A stretch of 6,394 nucleotides of DNA from a virus (lineage: Duplodnaviria > Heunggongvirae > Uroviricota > Caudoviricetes), in IMG/VR virus record IMGVR_UViG_2690316099_000016, one strand, 5' to 3'. The notes under the pieces were generated by a model, which had not been told where the DNA came from, did no database searches, and saw nothing but the letters and a program-made list of their open reading frames with translations. This document shows positions 1-6,361 of the stretch, piece by piece. The stretch's first letter is position 1; every line of letters starts with the position of its first letter. The translations under genes and the position numbers were made by a program.

Positions 1-37
1 CTATATGGCAACTAACATACGGGCCAGCCTCGCCAAA

Positions 38-568
38 CTAACCCGCTTTAGATTCTACCGGATTTGATTGCCTACTTGTCTCGGTTTTTTCCAAAATCTC
101 TCTGACGCAATCGTCTGGCATATCTACAATCATCAACGCAGCCAGGCGCTTCCTGCCTTCTAGTTGTAATAAATCCTGGTTTTCTTTATTCAGCAGTGTC
201 AGAACCGTCTCTACACCTTTGCGAGCAAGGAGATTGGTTAACTGTTCTCGTTCGTCTTTCGTAAGGAATGAAAGCATCTGTGTAAGCTGATCTCCCTTAT
301 CACCAGAACAACCAAAATCACCATAAATACCAATATCGTTTGGTAATTCACCCTTGCCCTCTTTAAGCCACTCAAGACTAACGCCTTCACTTTCAGAAAT
401 TCGTATAAGGATACTTTCTCTGGGGGCTGGTTGTGTTTGTCCTCCCTTGAAATAGCTGTTTAATGTGTTGATATTGATTCCCCACGCTCTGGCAGCTGCA
501 CTTCTTGAAGGGTAGCGCTTTGTAAGCATTCCAATACGTTCAATAACAGGTTCTTTTCCCTGCGACAT
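38..568 (-). CDS. Prophage repressor, CI-type HTH N-terminal domain (functional analogue of Mu repressor c); 176 aa
   Basis: Minus-strand ORF with ATG at complement of 566..568 and an AAGAGG Shine-Dalgarno 7 nt upstream (complement of 576..581); stop TAG at complement of 38..40. The ORF-track 336-aa version is an artefact of reading through the N run. N-terminal segment RSAAARAWGININTLNSYFKGG...GVSLEWLKEGKGE resembles the Phage_CI_repr helix-turn-helix family (compare coliphage 186 CI ...GANLQWLLTGEGE, recalled from memory). No peptidase S24 motif is visible. Divergent from ner, as for the Mu repressor. Confidence 0.75.
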   Translation of the reverse strand: MSQGKEPVIERIGMLTKRYPSRSAAARAWGININTLNSYFKGGQTQPAPRESILIRISESEGVSLEWLKEGKGELPNDIGIYGDFGCSGDKGDQLTQMLSFLTKDEREQLTNLLARKGVETVLTLLNKENQDLLQLEGRKRLAALMIVDMPDDCVREILEKTETSRQSNPVESKAG

Positions 569-587
569 AAAGATACCTCTTGGTGCT

Positions 588-1007
588 NNNNNNNNNNNNN
601 NNNNNNNNNNNNNNNNNNNNNNNNNNNNNNNNNNNNNNNNNNNNNNNNNNNNNNNNNNNNNNNNNNNNNNNNNNNNNNNNNNNNNNNNNNNNNNNNNNNN
701 NNNNNNNNNNNNNNNNNNNNNNNNNNNNNNNNNNNNNNNNNNNNNNNNNNNNNNNNNNNNNNNNNNNNNNNNNNNNNNNNNNNNNNNNNNNNNNNNNNNN
801 NNNNNNNNNNNNNNNNNNNNNNNNNNNNNNNNNNNNNNNNNNNNNNNNNNNNNNNNNNNNNNNNNNNNNNNNNNNNNNNNNNNNNNNNNNNNNNNNNNNN
901 NNNNNNNNNNNNNNNNNNNNNNNNNNNNNNNNNNNNNNNNNNNNNNNNNNNNNNNNNNNNNNNNNNNNNNNNNNNNNNNNNNNNNNNNNNNNNNNNNNNN
1001 NNNNNNN
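588..1007. other. N-masked run (420 nt); expected to contain the repressor/early operator-promoter region and the 5' part of ner
   Basis: Uninterrupted run of n characters seen directly; the content is inferred only from flanking genes. Confidence 1.
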
Positions 1008-1107
1008 ACCGTATCAGCAAATAATTGCTGATGCTCTTGGGGTATCACCTGAAGAAATCTGGCCCAGTCGATACCAGGTTAAGAGCTATATGAGAAAGGC
1101 GTCATGA
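862..1107 (+). CDS. ner: Ner-like DNA-binding protein (Ner/Nlp family); only 1008..1107 is readable, the start coordinate is an estimate inside the masked run
   Basis: Readable C-terminus PYQQIIADALGVSPEEIWPSRYQVKSYMRKAS matches the Mu Ner C-terminal signature (...GEQIIANALETKPEVIWPSRYQAGE, from memory) and the E. coli Nlp tail. Stop TGA at 1105..1107. Start estimated by placing IWPSRYQ at the same distance from the N-terminus as in 75-aa Mu Ner. Confidence 0.8.
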   Translation, partial: XXXXXXXXXXXXXXXXXXXXXXXXXXXXXXXXXXXXXXXXXXXXXXXXXPYQQIIADALGVSPEEIWPSRYQVKSYMRKAS

Positions 1108-1108
1108 T

Positions 1109-3250
1109 ATGTATGTCATTGCAAAAGAACTGATTGGCGCGCCCGGAATGCCTGCTACAACAAAAGGTATTCGCCAGGCATTACAACGTTACGTACAAGG
1201 GAAAAGCTGTTGTTCCCGTCGTCGCTCAGGCTCTAAAGCAACTGAATACAGCATCGACTGTTTACCTGAAGTGACGCAGCAGGCATTACGTGAACGCTAC
1301 GCCCTGCAACTGATGACGCAAAAAGCCGATGAATCACCGGCTCCGGTGGTGACAAAGGCCAGACGCTCACCTGCCGTGGTTGATGCGGTGGAGGCATATC
1401 GCGGATCACCCCAACTGATGGTCGAACGCCTCAATGCCCTGACTGAAAACCAACGTAAAGTGGCAGAGGCACGAATAGCGATCGTCAGCGAGGTGCTGAA
1501 AATCGCGCAACAACCCGGCTTTAGTTGCGCTAAGGCTATCCGGTTCCTCGTTAACAGCCTGGCACGATCACAACTGGACGAGCGCATTGTGGCAATGGTT
1601 GAGACGGCGAACGCCAAAAAGGGAAACAGCCGCGCGTTGAGTGAAATCACGCTGAAACGCTGGATTGCGGCCTTTAACAAGGCACAGAACGCCGCTGAAC
1701 GCCTGCTTTTACTGGCACCGGGTAAACGCCAGGAAATAAAAGCCGAAGATATTAACTGGCTGCCCGAATTTCTGGCGCAGTATCGCCAGTCAAACGGCCG
1801 ACCAATGACCGAGGCTTACGAGGATTTTGTTGCTGAATGGCAGCACCGGCACGCTGATGAGCCTTATATGCTCGATATCATGCCCTCTTATGACACCATT
1901 CGCCGCGCAATGAAGAAACTGCCGGAAGTGGTGAAACAAAAAGGCCGGGTAACTGGCAGTGAATACCGTCAGCTTGAGGGATTCACGCGCCGCGACTGGT
2001 CCAGAATGCCGGTGAATTATGTCTGGATTGGTGACGGTCACGGCATGAAGCTGAAATGCGCGCACCCGGTTCACGGGCGGCCATTCGCACCGGAAGTGAC
2101 CTTTGTTATCGACGGTGGCACGCGCTTTGTGGTGGGCTGGAGCCTTGACCTGGCTGAAAATGTTTTCGCCGTAGCCGGTGCCATACAGCACGGTATTCGC
2201 CATCATGGCAAACCGTTTCTGTATTACTCGGATAATGGCTCCGGGGAAACCGCCGACGTCCTGGATAAGGAGATTGTGGGGATACTGCCACGACTGGGGA
2301 TTAATCACCCGACAGGGATTGCCGGTAATCCGCAGGGACGGGGCATTATCGAACGGCTTAACCGCACATTACCGATGCGCATAGCCCGTAAATACCGCAC
2401 CTATTTCGGGAAAGGAGCAGATCGCGAGACGTTACGTAAAACCAACCGCGATTTACGCTCGGCATTCAGTGCCCTGCAACAGGGCAAACGGCTGAACGCC
2501 CGGCAGCAGTCAGCGATGCGTGATTTACCGTCCTGGTCTGAACTGATTGATGCCATTCGTGACGGTGTTGAGTGGTACAACAACCGGCCGCACGATGAAT
2601 TACCCATGAAGCCGAACGGTAAACATTACAGCCCGGCGGAGTTCAGAAAAAAACGCCTGGCGGAAGAGGACACGGAAATTGAATGGCTGTCCGATGTTGA
2701 ACTGCGGGATATGTTCCGGCCGATGGTGGAGCGCCCTGTAAGACGCTGTGAAATACGCTGGCTGAATAATATTTACTACGCGCCCGAGCTGCGTGACGAG
2801 CATGGCCGTAAGGTACTTATCAGCTATGACATTCATGATGCCGAACGAATTACCGTGCGCCGCCCGGATGGCAGCGTGATTTGCGAGGCGGTATGGGACG
2901 GCAATAAACGCGAAGCCTTCCCTGTCAGCGCGGAATACTACAAACAGCANNNNNNNNNNNNNNNNNNNNNNNNNNNNNNNNNNNNNNNNNNNNNNNNNNN
3001 NNNNNNNNNNNNNNNNNNNNNNNNNNNNNNNNNNNNNNNNNNNNNNNNNNNNNNNNNNNNNNNNNNNNNNNNNNNNNNNNNNNNNNNNNNNNNNNNNNNN
3101 NNNNNNNNNNNNNNNNNNNNNNNNNNNNNNNNNNNNNNNNNNNNNNNNNNNNNNNNNNNNNNNNNNNNNNNNNNNNNNNNNNNNNNNNNNNNNNNNNNNN
3201 NNNNNNNNNNNNNNNNNNNNNNNNNNNNNNNNNNNNNNNNNNNNNNNNNN
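1109..3250 (+). CDS. A: MuA-like DDE transposase (transposase A); 1109..2949 is readable (613 codons), the 3' end is an estimate inside the masked run
   Basis: ATG at 1109, 1 nt after the ner stop. N-terminus ELIGAPGMPATTKGI...RRSGSKATEYSIDCLPEVTQQAL aligns by eye with MuA domain I-alpha (ECANLPGLPKTSAGVI...GVKGGKAIEYNANSLPVEAKAAL). Putative catalytic triad: D309 in WIGDGHG (codon 2033..2035), D375 in YYSDNGSGE (codon 2231..2233), E415 in GRGIIERLNRTL (codon 2351..2353). The ORF-track continuation to 3682 is a frame artefact across N. Confidence 0.9.
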
Positions 3251-3629
3251 NNNNNNNNNNNNNNNNNNNNNNNNNNNNNNNNNNNNNNNNNNNNNNNNNN
3301 NNNNNNNNNNNNNNNNNNNNNNNNNNNNNNNNNNNNNNNNNNNNNNNNNNNNNNNNNNNNNNNNNNNNNNNNNNNNNNNNNNNNNNNNNNNNNNNNNNNN
3401 NNNNNNNNNNNNNNNNNNNNNNNNNNNNNNNNNNNNNNNNNNNNNNNNNNNNNNNNNNNNNNNNNNNNNNNNNNNNNNNNNNNNNNNNNNNNNNNNNNNN
3501 NNNNNNNNNNNNNNNNNNNNNNNNNNNNNNNNNNNNNNNNNNNNNNNNNNNNNNNNNNNNNNNNNNNNNNNNNNNNNNNNNNNNNNNNNNNNNNNNNNNN
3601 NNNNNNNNNNNNNNNNNNNNNNNNNNNNN
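2950..3629. other. N-masked run (680 nt) covering the 3' end of A and the 5' end of B
   Basis: Uninterrupted run of n characters seen directly. Confidence 1.
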
Positions 3630-5112: not shown

Positions 5113-5819
5113 GTAAAGTCGTACACATTATTTTCGAATATAAGGAGCACGTTATCCATAAAAACGCTGATGGAACAGTGCGCATNNNNNNNNNNNNNNN
5201 NNNNNNNNNNNNNNNNNNNNNNNNNNNNNNNNNNNNNNNNNNNNNNNNNNNNNNNNNNNNNNNNNNNNNNNNNNNNNNNNNNNNNNNNNNNNNNNNNNNN
5301 NNNNNNNNNNNNNNNNNNNNNNNNNNNNNNNNNNNNNNNNNNNNNNNNNNNNNNNNNNNNNNNNNNNNNNNNNNNNNNNNNNNNNNNNNNNNNNNNNNNN
5401 NNNNNNNNNNNNNNNNNNNNNNNNNNNNNNNNNNNNNNNNNNNNNNNNNNNNNNNNNNNNNNNNNNNNNNNNNNNNNNNNNNNNNNNNNNNNNNNNNNNN
5501 NNNNNNNNNNNNNNNNNNNNNNNNNNNNNNNNNNNNNNNNNNNNNNNNNNNNNNNNNNNNNNNNNNNNNNNNNNNNNNNNNNNNNNNNNNNNNNNNNNNN
5601 NNNNNNNNNNNNNNNNNNNNNNNNNNNNNNNNNNNNNNNNGTGATACGGAGAACAGACCGACAGGCCCATGTGATGTTTATGCGCAAATTCTTAAATATC
5701 ACAGCCCCACAATTATTCAGTTTCTGACAGATGAACTTCAGGGTTCCATGCAGGCTCTGGGGGTGAAAAGCAGCATTGAGCGCCGCTCCTTGCAGAACGC
5801 ACCAGATACATTGCAATAA
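5109..5819 (+). CDS. Hypothetical protein, about 236 aa if it is a single ORF; the middle 455 nt is masked, so it could be two genes
   Basis: ATG at 5109 overlaps the upstream stop; GAGG at 5097..5100. Readable N-terminus MSKVVHIIFEYKEHVIHKNADGTVR. Readable C-terminus DTENRPTGPCDVYAQILKYHSPTIIQFLTDELQGSMQALGVKSSIERRSLQNAPDTLQ ends at TAA 5817..5819, directly abutting the gam ribosome-binding site. The start frame and stop frame coincide across the N run (1 in 3 by chance), which weakly supports a single ORF. Confidence 0.4.
   Translation: MSKVVHIIFEYKEHVIHKNADGTVRXXXXXXXXXXXXXXXXXXXXXXXXXXXXXXXXXXXXXXXXXXXXXXXXXXXXXXXXXXXXXXXXXXXXXXXXXXXXXXXXXXXXXXXXXXXXXXXXXXXXXXXXXXXXXXXXXXXXXXXXXXXXXXXXXXXXXXXXXXXXXXXXXXXXXXXXXDTENRPTGPCDVYAQILKYHSPTIIQFLTDELQGSMQALGVKSSIERRSLQNAPDTLQ
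5186..5640. other. N-masked run (455 nt) inside the largest accessory ORF
   Basis: Uninterrupted run of n characters seen directly. Confidence 1.
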
Positions 5820-5830
5820 GGAAAAACAAA

Positions 5831-6361
5831 ATGGCAAAACGCGTTACAAAATTAAAGGCTGTAGCCGAGGCCGCACCGCAGACCCGCGAAGAAGTCAGCC
5901 GCGATATCCGCACCCTGGGCGATATTCAGCGAGAGGCGCTGCGCCTGGAAACGGCGATGAATGATGAAGTGGCAGAAATCACCGCCCGTTATACGCCGCA
6001 GATTGAAAATCTTAAAAAGCAAATCAAAGTGCTTTTTAAAGGGATTCAGGACTGGTGTAAAACCAACCGTGATGAGCTGACGAACGGCGGCAAAACCAAA
6101 ACTGCCAATCTGACCACCGGAACGGTGTCATGGCGGCTGGGAACGCCATCATGCAGCGTCAGCCGTGATGTGGAAGGTGTGATTGACACGCTGCGCCGTA
6201 TGGGGCTTGAGCGATTCATCCGCACGAAAGAGGAAGTGAACAAGGAAGCCGTCCTGGCGGAGCCGGATGCGGTGAAAGGCATTGCCGGTATAAAGGTGAA
6301 TAAAGGCGCTGAAAGTTTTTATGTCGAGCCTTTTGAACAGGATGCCGGACTGAATAAATAA
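5831..6361 (+). CDS. gam: Host-nuclease inhibitor protein Gam (Mu Gam / Ku-like DNA-end binding), 176 aa
   Basis: ATG at 5831 with AAGGA at 5818..5822. The protein MAKRVTKLKAVAEAAPQTREEVSRDIRTLGDIQREALRLETAMNDEVAEI...CKTNRDELTNGGKTKTANLTTGTVSWR...LERFIRTKEEVNKEAVLAEP...EPFEQDAG aligns closely by eye with Mu Gam (...IGDLQREASRLETEMNDAIAEI...ANRDELTNGGKVKTANLVTGDVSWR...LQRFIRTKQEINKEAILLEP...PFEQEAG, from memory). Stop TAA at 6359..6361. Confidence 0.9.
   Translation: MAKRVTKLKAVAEAAPQTREEVSRDIRTLGDIQREALRLETAMNDEVAEITARYTPQIENLKKQIKVLFKGIQDWCKTNRDELTNGGKTKTANLTTGTVSWRLGTPSCSVSRDVEGVIDTLRRMGLERFIRTKEEVNKEAVLAEPDAVKGIAGIKVNKGAESFYVEPFEQDAGLNK

Follow-up and report, generated by a model that had tools for sequence, protein, structure and literature searches.

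A chimeric immunity repressor with a Cro/CI-type head and a Mu-type C-terminal domain in an Sp18-type Muvirus prophage of Escherichia coli

In phage Mu, the DNA-binding domain of the repressor is paralogous to the enhancer-binding domain of the transposase. Both act on a shared operator/enhancer, and the repressor blocks transposition partly in this way. The Mu operator comprises O1, O2, and O3, and the C-terminal half of the Mu repressor (Rep) is a multimerisation and regulatory region. The combination of a CI-type repressor with a transposase carrying domain Iα is already known from phage D3112. Prophage Sp18 of E. coli is packaged and spontaneously induced, while mitomycin C does not induce it (PMC2669165).

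Layout of the module and domains of the repressor

The window, i.e., the whole stretch of 6394 nt that was analysed, carries the immunity and early-control module of a Mu-like prophage of E. coli, an Sp18-type Muvirus. The repressor gene c occupies 38..568 of the minus strand, with 176 codons plus stop; its ATG is at 568 and its stop codon at 38-40. It is followed by the divergent c-ner control region with the 5' part of ner (569..1007), the 3' end of a ner-like gene (1008..1107, plus strand), and the visible part of the transposase gene A (1109..2949, plus strand; the remainder is masked). The coordinates given in a preliminary description (38-1107) were correct: c begins its stretch, ner ends at 1107, and A starts at 1109. 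A terminator scan revealed a terminator-like hairpin across the c stop codon (19..46, minus strand). Its RNA is predicted to fold with -22.9 kcal/mol (z -3.2), and its U-tract is weak; Rfam returned zero matches. Positions 588-1007 are masked and padded in the window. This stretch exceeds the true length: the closest genomes have about 321-322 bases at this place, and strain TOE17 has 311. The control region was read from the relatives L001, L017, and L018, with flanks 99.8-100% identical to the window.

As in Mu, c lies leftward of ner-A-B, as deduced from synteny with relatives. The visible 32 residues of ner matched HTH_35 with 34.8 bits (cut-off 25), the gene sits between c and A, and the full product read in L001 has 82 amino acids. 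The A product matched Mu-transpos_C (1.8e-17) and the transposase family phrog_310 (6.7e-21), and its equivalent in strain Sakai is annotated as "DNA transposition protein". The rve core reached 18 bits, which is under the threshold, with the C-terminal part of A being masked. Prophages of the Sp18 type are found in different host genes from strain to strain, indicating that the system transposes in nature.

The 176 aa repressor showed 97% identity to ECs_4943 of prophage Sp18 in E. coli O157 Sakai and matched phrog_3037 ("transcriptional repressor", 6.9e-61). The existing annotations are less specific: RefSeq labels the product only as "hypothetical protein", and the equivalent 176-codon gene of Sakai, within "prophage Sp18", is called "regulatory protein". 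These labels would also suit an accessory regulator, with the immunity repressor being encoded elsewhere. We regard this as highly improbable, since c is the sole ORF from the left end to ner, shares position and orientation with Mu c, and has a homologue in phage VW-6B annotated as "C repressor". Its C-terminal domain is, moreover, homologous to Mu Rep, and the gene is swapped as a unit with the operator of the early promoter Pe in heteroimmune cassettes (see below).

Profile and fold searches assigned a Cro/CI (XRE)-type HTH head to the N-terminal residues 8-70 (359..547, minus strand). The head is a five-helix bundle in the style of the lambda and P22 repressors, with the HTH formed by helices 2 and 3, as in the Cro/CI fold. 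The window repressor alone stayed under the Pfam cut-offs, with 13.0 and 13.5 bits versus 22 and 23 for PF07022 and PF01381 (HTH_3, E 0.079; Phage_CI_repr, E 0.14 at residues 53-75, which contain GVSLEWLKEGKGE). PF07022, which we take to be built around the CI protein of coliphage 186, was matched by 15 of 30 aligned homologues at E≤0.01 (best 6.9e-6), and the homologue from vB_YpM_5 cleared the thresholds of both models (27.4 bits). The PHROG repressor families phrog_4, phrog_2328, and phrog_8 matched residues 20-78. A Pfam search of the window repressor gave nothing for PF02316 at E≤1, two fold searches gave no winged-helix match to the head, and a profile search of solved structures gave nothing significant except a 29-residue HTH match. 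The N-terminus thus resembles Phage_CI_repr and not Mu Rep, as the preliminary description had proposed, and no profile placed it with Mu Rep or MuA Iα. Since the head is of the Cro/CI type and not a paralogue of Iα, repressor and transposase share no DNA-reading domain.

The head is connected by a variable and disordered linker (residues 73-92; 293..352, minus strand). The pLDDT was about 46 at residues 81-90 and below 50 at residues 83-89. The linker is the most variable stretch in the alignment of the repressor family, and five of the six amino acid differences between the window and the O157 copy fall within it.

The C-terminal helical domain (residues 93-167; 68..292, minus strand) shares homology with the corresponding half of Mu and D108 Rep. 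The PHROG family of Mu Rep, phrog_7148, matched the repressor only at residues 91-174 (1.5e-10), and reciprocally Mu Rep matched phrog_3037 (1.1e-4). BLASTP of the window repressor resulted in 1e-6 for D108 Rep and 3e-16 for the winged-helix repressor of strain F8492, with 44% identity in the C-domain. The hhalign score was 26.6, versus 10.8 ± 2.2 for 150 column-shuffled controls. The profile of the repressor family also pulled in proteins that are alike solely in the C-terminal half and have PF02316 heads. This homology makes the repressor a true, natural chimera, in which a disordered linker joins a Cro/CI-type HTH head to a Mu-type C-domain and tail. The earlier suggestion of a domain swap in the immunity module was thereby borne out, the F8492 sister having a winged-helix head on its related C-domain. 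A literature search, mostly outside subscription journals (the classic Mu and D3112 papers not being covered), returned no account of the chimera.

The C-terminal tail (residues 168-176; 41..67, minus strand) ends with K-A-G. Among 120 homologues, 61 end with -AG and 42 with KAG, while relatives of Mu Rep have KAV in 21 of 24 cases and KAG in one. The role of such a tail as a ClpX tag is known from Mu (PMC10584840). By analogy, the KAG tail, which is similar but not identical to the KAV of Mu, may serve as a ClpX tag as well. Peptidase_S24 was absent from the window repressor in the Pfam search and from the families matched by its relatives, while the c protein of D3112, the positive control, was detected with 6.1e-23. 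As the S24 domain is missing, induction would not be driven by RecA-dependent self-cleavage but probably by the Mu-like C-terminal region together with ClpXP.

The operator region and a related cluster within c

In the relatives, the c-ner spacer comprises 191 bp, at 7569-7759 in L001, and Pe reads TTGATT-17-CATTAT. Pe was assigned by eye on an alignment of nine lineages; the promoter scan missed it (8 of 12 positions, below the scan cut-off). An inverted repeat, ACCAAAAATACC-N7-GGTATTTTTGGT, spans the -35 element and the spacer of Pe and is a candidate for the operator, and direct repeats GATATCCGCACGAATATCCGCG are present downstream of the -10 element. The repeated half-sites that the preliminary description had proposed to look for in 588..1007 were thus found in the relatives. 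Three or four copies of the operator motif surround Pe, one lies near the start of c, and a distal cluster is about 330-340 bp off. The Pe-proximal motif is broadly kept across the aligned lineages. Half-sites in all HTH cassettes consist of A-tract and ACC motifs, and the A-tracts of the operators show indels. A single Iα could conceivably read these half-sites in all HTH cassettes, in which case operator and enhancer would still overlap.

No enhancer element was located. The Mu consensus CTTTTYNR occurs in six copies clustered at 891-1019 in Mu, but it was clustered neither in the Sp18-type phage nor in D108 and could therefore not be used for locating an enhancer in the Sp18-type phage.

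The distal cluster (312..348, no strand assigned) is located in the linker-coding DNA of c and was recognised by motif match. It consists of CCAAAATCACC and CCATAAATACC, 9 bp apart, and an inverted TTTGGTAATT, and, across 14.6 kb of L001, it matches the operator better than any other place outside it. When the nine lineages were combined in a within-locus rank test, the intragenic match to the operator was significant (Fisher p = 2e-4). Covariation between operator and intragenic site, self versus non-self, was weak (p 0.01-0.09) because the A-tract motif is common to all operators, and the rank test was used instead. Instead of being a binding site, the cluster may have arisen as a by-product of A-tract slippage or of a linker that has low complexity and evolves fast. 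Several lineages have linkers rich in K/Q/E/N/T with A-rich codons, the motif differs by single bases among Sp18 copies and is weak or absent in four of the nine lineages, and the indels in the operator A-tracts also fit slippage. The window linker PNDIGIYGDFGCSGDKG, however, is not K/Q-rich, and its DNA nevertheless contains two half-sites at the 9-bp spacing of the operator plus an inverted copy. The heteroimmune cassette of strain 113 has a different operator motif, and it is this motif that is copied in its own linker-coding DNA. Together with the combined p value, this makes the by-product explanation the less probable one, though it keeps some weight. The cluster points to a regulatory DNA site lying within the coding sequence of a protein linker.

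From these data we propose that the repressor binds the inverted repeat at Pe as an oligomer formed through its Mu-type C-domain. Bound over the -35 element and the spacer, it would switch off ner-A-B. The weaker copies by the start of c and within c would also be bound, and a DNA loop is possible. If binding shuts off ner-A-B in this way, immunity would be due mainly to silencing of Pe and not to a contest between a repressor paralogue and Iα over shared sites. Silencing of the early promoter would by itself stop transposition, with no need for occlusion of an enhancer.

Immunity cassettes and domain Iα of the transposase

Residues 1-75 of A (1109..1333, plus strand) correspond to domain Iα of MuA. 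PF02316 matched with 28.8 bits (cut-off 23.3), and the best solved structure was MuA Iα (1tns, E 0.016), followed by 1g4d, the DNA-binding domain of the Mu repressor. The segment also matched the N-terminal part (positions 10-70) of phrog_7148 with 1.5e-8. This agrees with the MuA-like N-terminus noted previously. The Iγ subdomain (PF09039) gave nothing at E≤1 in residues 1-613 of A, while the MuA control gave 4.1e-45; Iγ is probably too diverged for detection, which leaves the main claim unaffected.

Three cassettes occur on one backbone in E. coli. The present HTH type was counted in 121 genomes, a second HTH type in 95, and the winged-helix type in 14; for comparison, the 3' end of ner together with the A segment occurs in 248 genomes. 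In strain 113, identity of the DNA to the window type is 100% from just past the -10 element of Pe, across ner, and into A for about 190 codons. To the left the DNA diverges, and the repressors are only 45% identical. The two HTH cassettes therefore swap only c and operator: HTH repressors travel with their own operator alone, with the junction just past the -10 element, next to identical ner and Iα.

The winged-helix repressor, in contrast, travels with a matched Iα, as in Mu and D108. The repressor of E. coli O157:H7 F8492 (WP_000599593.1) has a PF02316 head (29 bits) with 42% identity to its own Iα (4e-14). Its cassette brings a different ner, and the exchanged block enters A. The F8492 transposase differs from that of the window in residues 1-56 only (1109..1276, plus strand); from residue 57, the two show about 97% identity. 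Between Mu and D108, A residues 1-75 are 46% identical and the remainder 100%. Iα can also be exchanged against its surroundings in other lineages. L008 and L009 have Iα in common (99%), but neither c nor ner. In L009 and L012, c and ner are shared, while the Iα domains are only 44% identical; in such cases, c-operator-ner modules with 80-95% identity stand beside these diverged domains. The L012-type cassette is rare among complete E. coli genomes.

These findings suggest that operator recognition is uncoupled from enhancer recognition by Iα in the HTH cassettes. The decoupled recognition that the preliminary description had proposed as a possibility is thereby supported indirectly: two HTH repressors with separate operators stand beside identical ner and Iα, and the winged-helix repressor brings a matched Iα. 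The two could still be coupled if Iα bound the A-tract repeats of the HTH repressor, by overlapping or convergent recognition, so that the operator would be the enhancer and be occluded as in Mu. The tandem copies are more than a single HTH dimer needs and recall O1/O2/O3, the clustered Mu sites are likewise T-tract motifs, and the conservation of the Pe-proximal motif among lineages is compatible with this as well. Coupling is nevertheless unlikely in view of two different operator sets adjoining an identical Iα, of diverged Iα domains adjoining similar c-operator-ner modules, and of the Mu consensus being unclustered in the Sp18-type phage.

We consider it still less likely that Iα is a relic, i.e., a domain with no site-specific role in a phage with no enhancer. 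Iα does assort independently of all leftward sequence in HTH-type prophages, and an enhancer-like site travelling with it was not found. But the domain is over the Pfam threshold for PF02316 in all lineages checked, is intact across hundreds of genomes, and behaves in evolution as a separate cassette whose breakpoints fall either on its borders or within it. Such breakpoints suggest selection with a partner.

We assign a probability of about 0.7 to the account of the whole module, comprising a chimeric repressor, silencing of Pe, exchangeable cassettes, and a maintained Iα. More tentatively, and with the odds rather against it, the link between immunity and transposition known from Mu may be broken in Sp18-type Muviruses. 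HTH repressor and operator would then form a free cassette exchangeable at the -10 element of Pe, Iα would be a separate cassette with its own or a generic target, and a second operator would lie in the linker DNA of c. If this is true, the winged-helix head of Mu may be derived, the ancestral repressor having had an HTH head on the C-domain and acquired its new head from the transposase.

Common pathogenic E. coli thus carry three natural versions on one backbone, a matched winged-helix pair and two HTH repressors with unchanged Iα. With these existing strains, the share of Mu immunity that is due to enhancer occlusion versus plain promoter repression becomes testable. The comparison also defines the C-domain of the Mu repressor as a portable module and provides a "hypothetical protein" that is widespread among STEC genomes with a function.

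Comparison with known systems

Sakai Sp18 and the Yersinia Muviruses vB_YpM_5, vB_YpM_6, and Tongde share the repressor family and the c-ner-A-B layout with the window, with no difference in kind. The gene was called "C-repressor" by its position, and the different head was not remarked upon (PMC10434027). The F8492-type cassette has the same prophage backbone and the related repressor C-domain, but differs by the PF02316 head, another ner, and an exchanged block that includes A codons 1-56.

D3112 of Pseudomonas likewise has a CI-type HTH repressor and a transposase with strong PF02316 (2.1e-44). Its c protein, however, is LexA/lambda-CI-like with Peptidase_S24 and has no Mu-Rep C-domain. As an HTH_3 and Peptidase_S24 repressor is already paired with a PF02316 transposase in this phage, the novelty implied earlier for the present locus was too strong. 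P22 c2, 434 repressor, and 186 CI (PF07022, HTH_3) have C-terminal domains unrelated to that of the Sp18-type repressor.

The c genes of Mu and D108 are alike in their leftward position upstream of ner-A-B, the homologous C-terminal half, the lack of S24, an operator over the early promoter, and a C-terminal tail of the type basic-Ala-small. They differ in the head, which is a winged helix paralogous to MuA Iα in Mu and D108 and a five-helix Cro/CI HTH in the Sp18 type.

Architecture of the repressor

The repressor gene c (window 38-568, leftward) encodes a protein of 176 aa. On its own, this protein scored below the Pfam thresholds for both HTH_3 (E 0.079) and Phage_CI_repr (E 0.14, residues 53-75, the stretch picked out in the preliminary description). 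The homologue family resolved it as an HTH protein, since PF07022 was matched by 15 of 30 aligned members and the homologue from Yersinia phage vB_YpM_5 was above threshold for PF07022 and HTH_3. Almost all of the 153 homologues at E<=1e-3 were from Enterobacterales. An AlphaFold model based on the family alignment placed five helices in residues 8-70 (pLDDT >90). PF02316, the enhancer-binding I-alpha domain of MuA-type transposases, gave no match to the repressor at E<=1, and the winged helix of the Mu repressor (1g4d, 1qpm) was absent from the results of both fold searches. The repressor head belongs to the Cro/CI fold.

Judged by sequence comparison, residues 93-167 are homologous to the C-terminal half of Mu-type repressors, and the protein is a chimera. 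BLASTP aligned the Mu repressor with the C-half at 29% identity over 80 residues (E 0.043) and the D108 repressor at E 1e-6; profile-profile comparison gave E 1.6e-4. The C-terminal halves by themselves scored 26.6, against 10.8 +/- 2.2 (maximum 17.9) for 150 column-shuffled controls. The clearest test was the comparison with PHROGs: the full-length repressor corresponds to phrog_3037 (6.9e-61), while phrog_7148, which the Mu repressor matches at 6.9e-73, also matches residues 91-174 (1.5e-10), and Mu repressor residues 90-185 reciprocally match phrog_3037. Searching 1.84 billion representative proteins with the family profile yielded 444 relatives, several of which match by the C-half alone (E 1.6e-13 to 1.6e-9) and carry PF02316 above threshold at their N-termini. 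The C-terminus of most proteins in both families is a basic-Ala/Val-small tail (KAG in the repressor, KAV in Mu). Literature cited in PMC10584840 places a ClpX determinant in the corresponding tail region of the Mu repressor, and by analogy the repressor tail may have this role. The domain swap suggested in the preliminary description, with a CI-type head in place of the Mu type, was thus borne out.

Some relatives of 250-330 aa (among them P0024 and P0063) have tandem duplicate HTH heads before a single C-domain, and others, e.g., P0093 and P0101, have a long additional C-terminal insertion. The c repressor of phage VW-6B (L006 3465-4010) shows 61% protein identity to that of the window and about 75% DNA identity across the HTH-coding part, with the same ner and operator arrangement as the E. 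coli prophage. For a phage reported from Pseudomonas fluorescens this resemblance is unexpectedly close.

Control region and putative operators

The window corresponds to the left portion of a Mu-like prophage of E. coli and carries, after c, the masked control region (588-1007), the ner 3' end (up to 1107), the transposase gene A (from 1109), B (up to 4338) and gam (5831-6361). The masked stretch had flanks 99.8-100% identical to those in several complete E. coli genomes. In strain Sakai the equivalent copy lies within the annotated 'prophage Sp18, Mu-like phage', with the repressor as ECs_4943, 'regulatory protein'. According to PMC2669165, Sp18 is intact, efficiently packaged and spontaneously induced, and mitomycin C does not induce it. 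Prophage insertions were found in sorM, bcsA, ypdA, ypdB, rhsD, comEC and other genes, and the system is therefore mobile in nature. Some genomes harbor two to four copies of the transposase segment, and two matches to it were on plasmids, one being NZ_CP012497.1 (136 kb).

The 420 N at 588-1007 stand for 321-322 real bases in near-identical genomes (311 in strain TOE17). This mask and those at 2950-3629 and 5186-5640 exceed the DNA they replace by about 100-140 bases, and the offset to the near-identical genome L001 moved from 7000 to 6901, 6777 and 6637 over the three masks. Any window distance that spans a mask is therefore not real, and the control region was taken from L001, L017 (TOE17) and L018. 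The left prophage end lies about 213 bp left of the window start (TGTAACCAGGTGAA...; L001 6788-6880), so that attL is absent from the window; this segment contains repeated AGGTGAA and ACAGGTGAT motifs resembling transposase end-binding sites. A hairpin with a 12-bp stem over the c stop codon (window 19-46, minus strand, -22.9 kcal/mol, z -3.2, weak U-tract) is a possible c terminator.

When the masked interval was read in relatives, as had been proposed, the c-ner spacer was 191 bp. The early promoter Pe, read from the alignment as TTGATT-17-CATTAT, was conserved across nine lineages. A perfect inverted repeat, ACCAAAAATACC-N7-GGTATTTTTGGT, covers its -35 and spacer, and an additional tandem copy lies 9 bp upstream. 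Just past the -10, direct repeats GATATCCGCACGAATATCCGCG (L001 7707-7745) are kept in all nine lineages, inside an imperfect palindrome TTACCCGTACAG...CGCGCGGGTAA; because of their position they are probably Ner sites. The control region is nearly invariant in the Sp18 clade save for the A-tract repeats. TOE17 lacks 11 bp of these upstream of the -35 compared to L001 and L018, and other Sp18 strains show 1-bp differences in the operator region. The polymorphism looks like slippage and alters the number of upstream half-site copies.

A second, operator-like cluster was present within c, in the DNA coding for the disordered linker of the repressor (window 312-348): CCAAAATCACC and CCATAAATACC spaced 9 bp, followed by inverted TTTGGTAATT. 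With the operator itself set aside, it was the top operator match in 14.6 kb of L001. Strain 113 has a different operator, GGTTCTTTTGTTTGTTC, and the identical motif recurs in its own linker DNA; the same correspondence was seen in phage Tongde, L009 and L011. Four other lineages did not show this correspondence, and the cluster could be a compositional by-product. Combined over lineages, the linker/operator match had p = 2e-4. We prefer to read 312-348 as a candidate distal operator looping to Pe via oligomeric repressor. Most likely, the HTH head would read the inverted repeat at Pe, with oligomerisation and probably also stability control provided by the Mu-type C-domain; with Pe silenced, no ner, A or B would be made.

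Immunity cassettes and the transposase N-terminus

The N-terminus of A is MuA-like, as the preliminary description had stated. It passed PF02316 with 28.8 bits (cut-off 23.3), MuA I-alpha (1tns) was its nearest solved structure, with the DNA-binding domain of the Mu repressor (1g4d) second, and it matched the N-terminal part of the PHROG Mu repressor family (1.5e-8). The I-gamma subdomain (PF09039) was not detected in A (window 1109-2949), and the end-binding part is far from MuA. Mu-transpos_C and I-alpha were clear, the rve core sub-threshold.

Among 5,426 complete E. coli genomes, 248 contained the ner 3' end and A segment, with three different cassettes on the left. Relative to the window/Sakai cassette (121 genomes, 176-aa repressor with HTH head), the strain 113 cassette (95 genomes) differs only in c and operator: its 194-aa repressor, also with an HTH head, is 45% identical, and DNA identity is 100% from just past the Pe -10 through ner and about 190 A codons. 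The F8492 (O157:H7) cassette (14 genomes) differs in c, ner and A residues 1-56, beyond which A is almost identical. Its repressor has a PF02316 winged-helix head (29 bits), 42% identical to its own I-alpha (4e-14), and a C-domain 44% identical to that of the window (3e-16). This pairing is like the pattern of Mu and D108, whose A proteins are 46% identical in residues 1-75 and 100% in the remainder. In these alignments a repressor whose head is an I-alpha paralogue moves together with I-alpha; a repressor with an HTH head is exchanged with its operator only.

More distant relatives agreed with this pattern. Tongde and L009 share I-alpha (99%) but not c or ner; between L009 and L012, DNA identity is 80-95% in c, operator and ner, and I-alpha is only 44% identical; L007 and L011 switch precisely at the I-alpha/I-beta border. 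A single base separates the ner stop from the A start (TGATATG, window 1105-1111). Recombination breakpoints in the Tongde/L009 and L009/L012 comparisons fell within the final 50-100 bp of ner, and the ner/A junction is therefore a module boundary.

The exchange of HTH-type c and operator beside unchanged ner and I-alpha gives indirect but consistent support to the earlier suggestion that operator and enhancer recognition may be decoupled. This part of the preliminary description stood only partly, as the operators have an A-tract motif common to the whole family, and one I-alpha might read all of them, with recognition still coupled. The GATATCCGCACGAATATCCGCG repeats, being the first DNA common to both HTH cassettes, are a candidate location of an enhancer moving with I-alpha. 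I-alpha itself may have a target other than the repressor's operator, a generic target or little function.

Comparison with known systems

The repressor family is present in PHROGs and in the isolated phages vB_YpM_5, vB_YpM_6, Tongde and VW-6B, and in isolated phages the gene was named 'C repressor' by position (PMC10434027). In the searchable literature we found no description of the chimeric architecture, of the three-cassette polymorphism with conditional I-alpha co-transfer, or of the candidate intragenic operator. A CI-type repressor next to an I-alpha-bearing transposase is not new: in D3112, c has HTH_3 and S24, and A matches PF02316 at 2.1e-44. Repressors of the lambda-CI/LexA type carry an S24 domain; the window repressor lacks it and is thus not of this type, which fits the insensitivity of Sp18 to mitomycin C. 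Since the winged helix is absent, it is also not a full Mu repressor, yet the C-domain and the genomic role are common to both.
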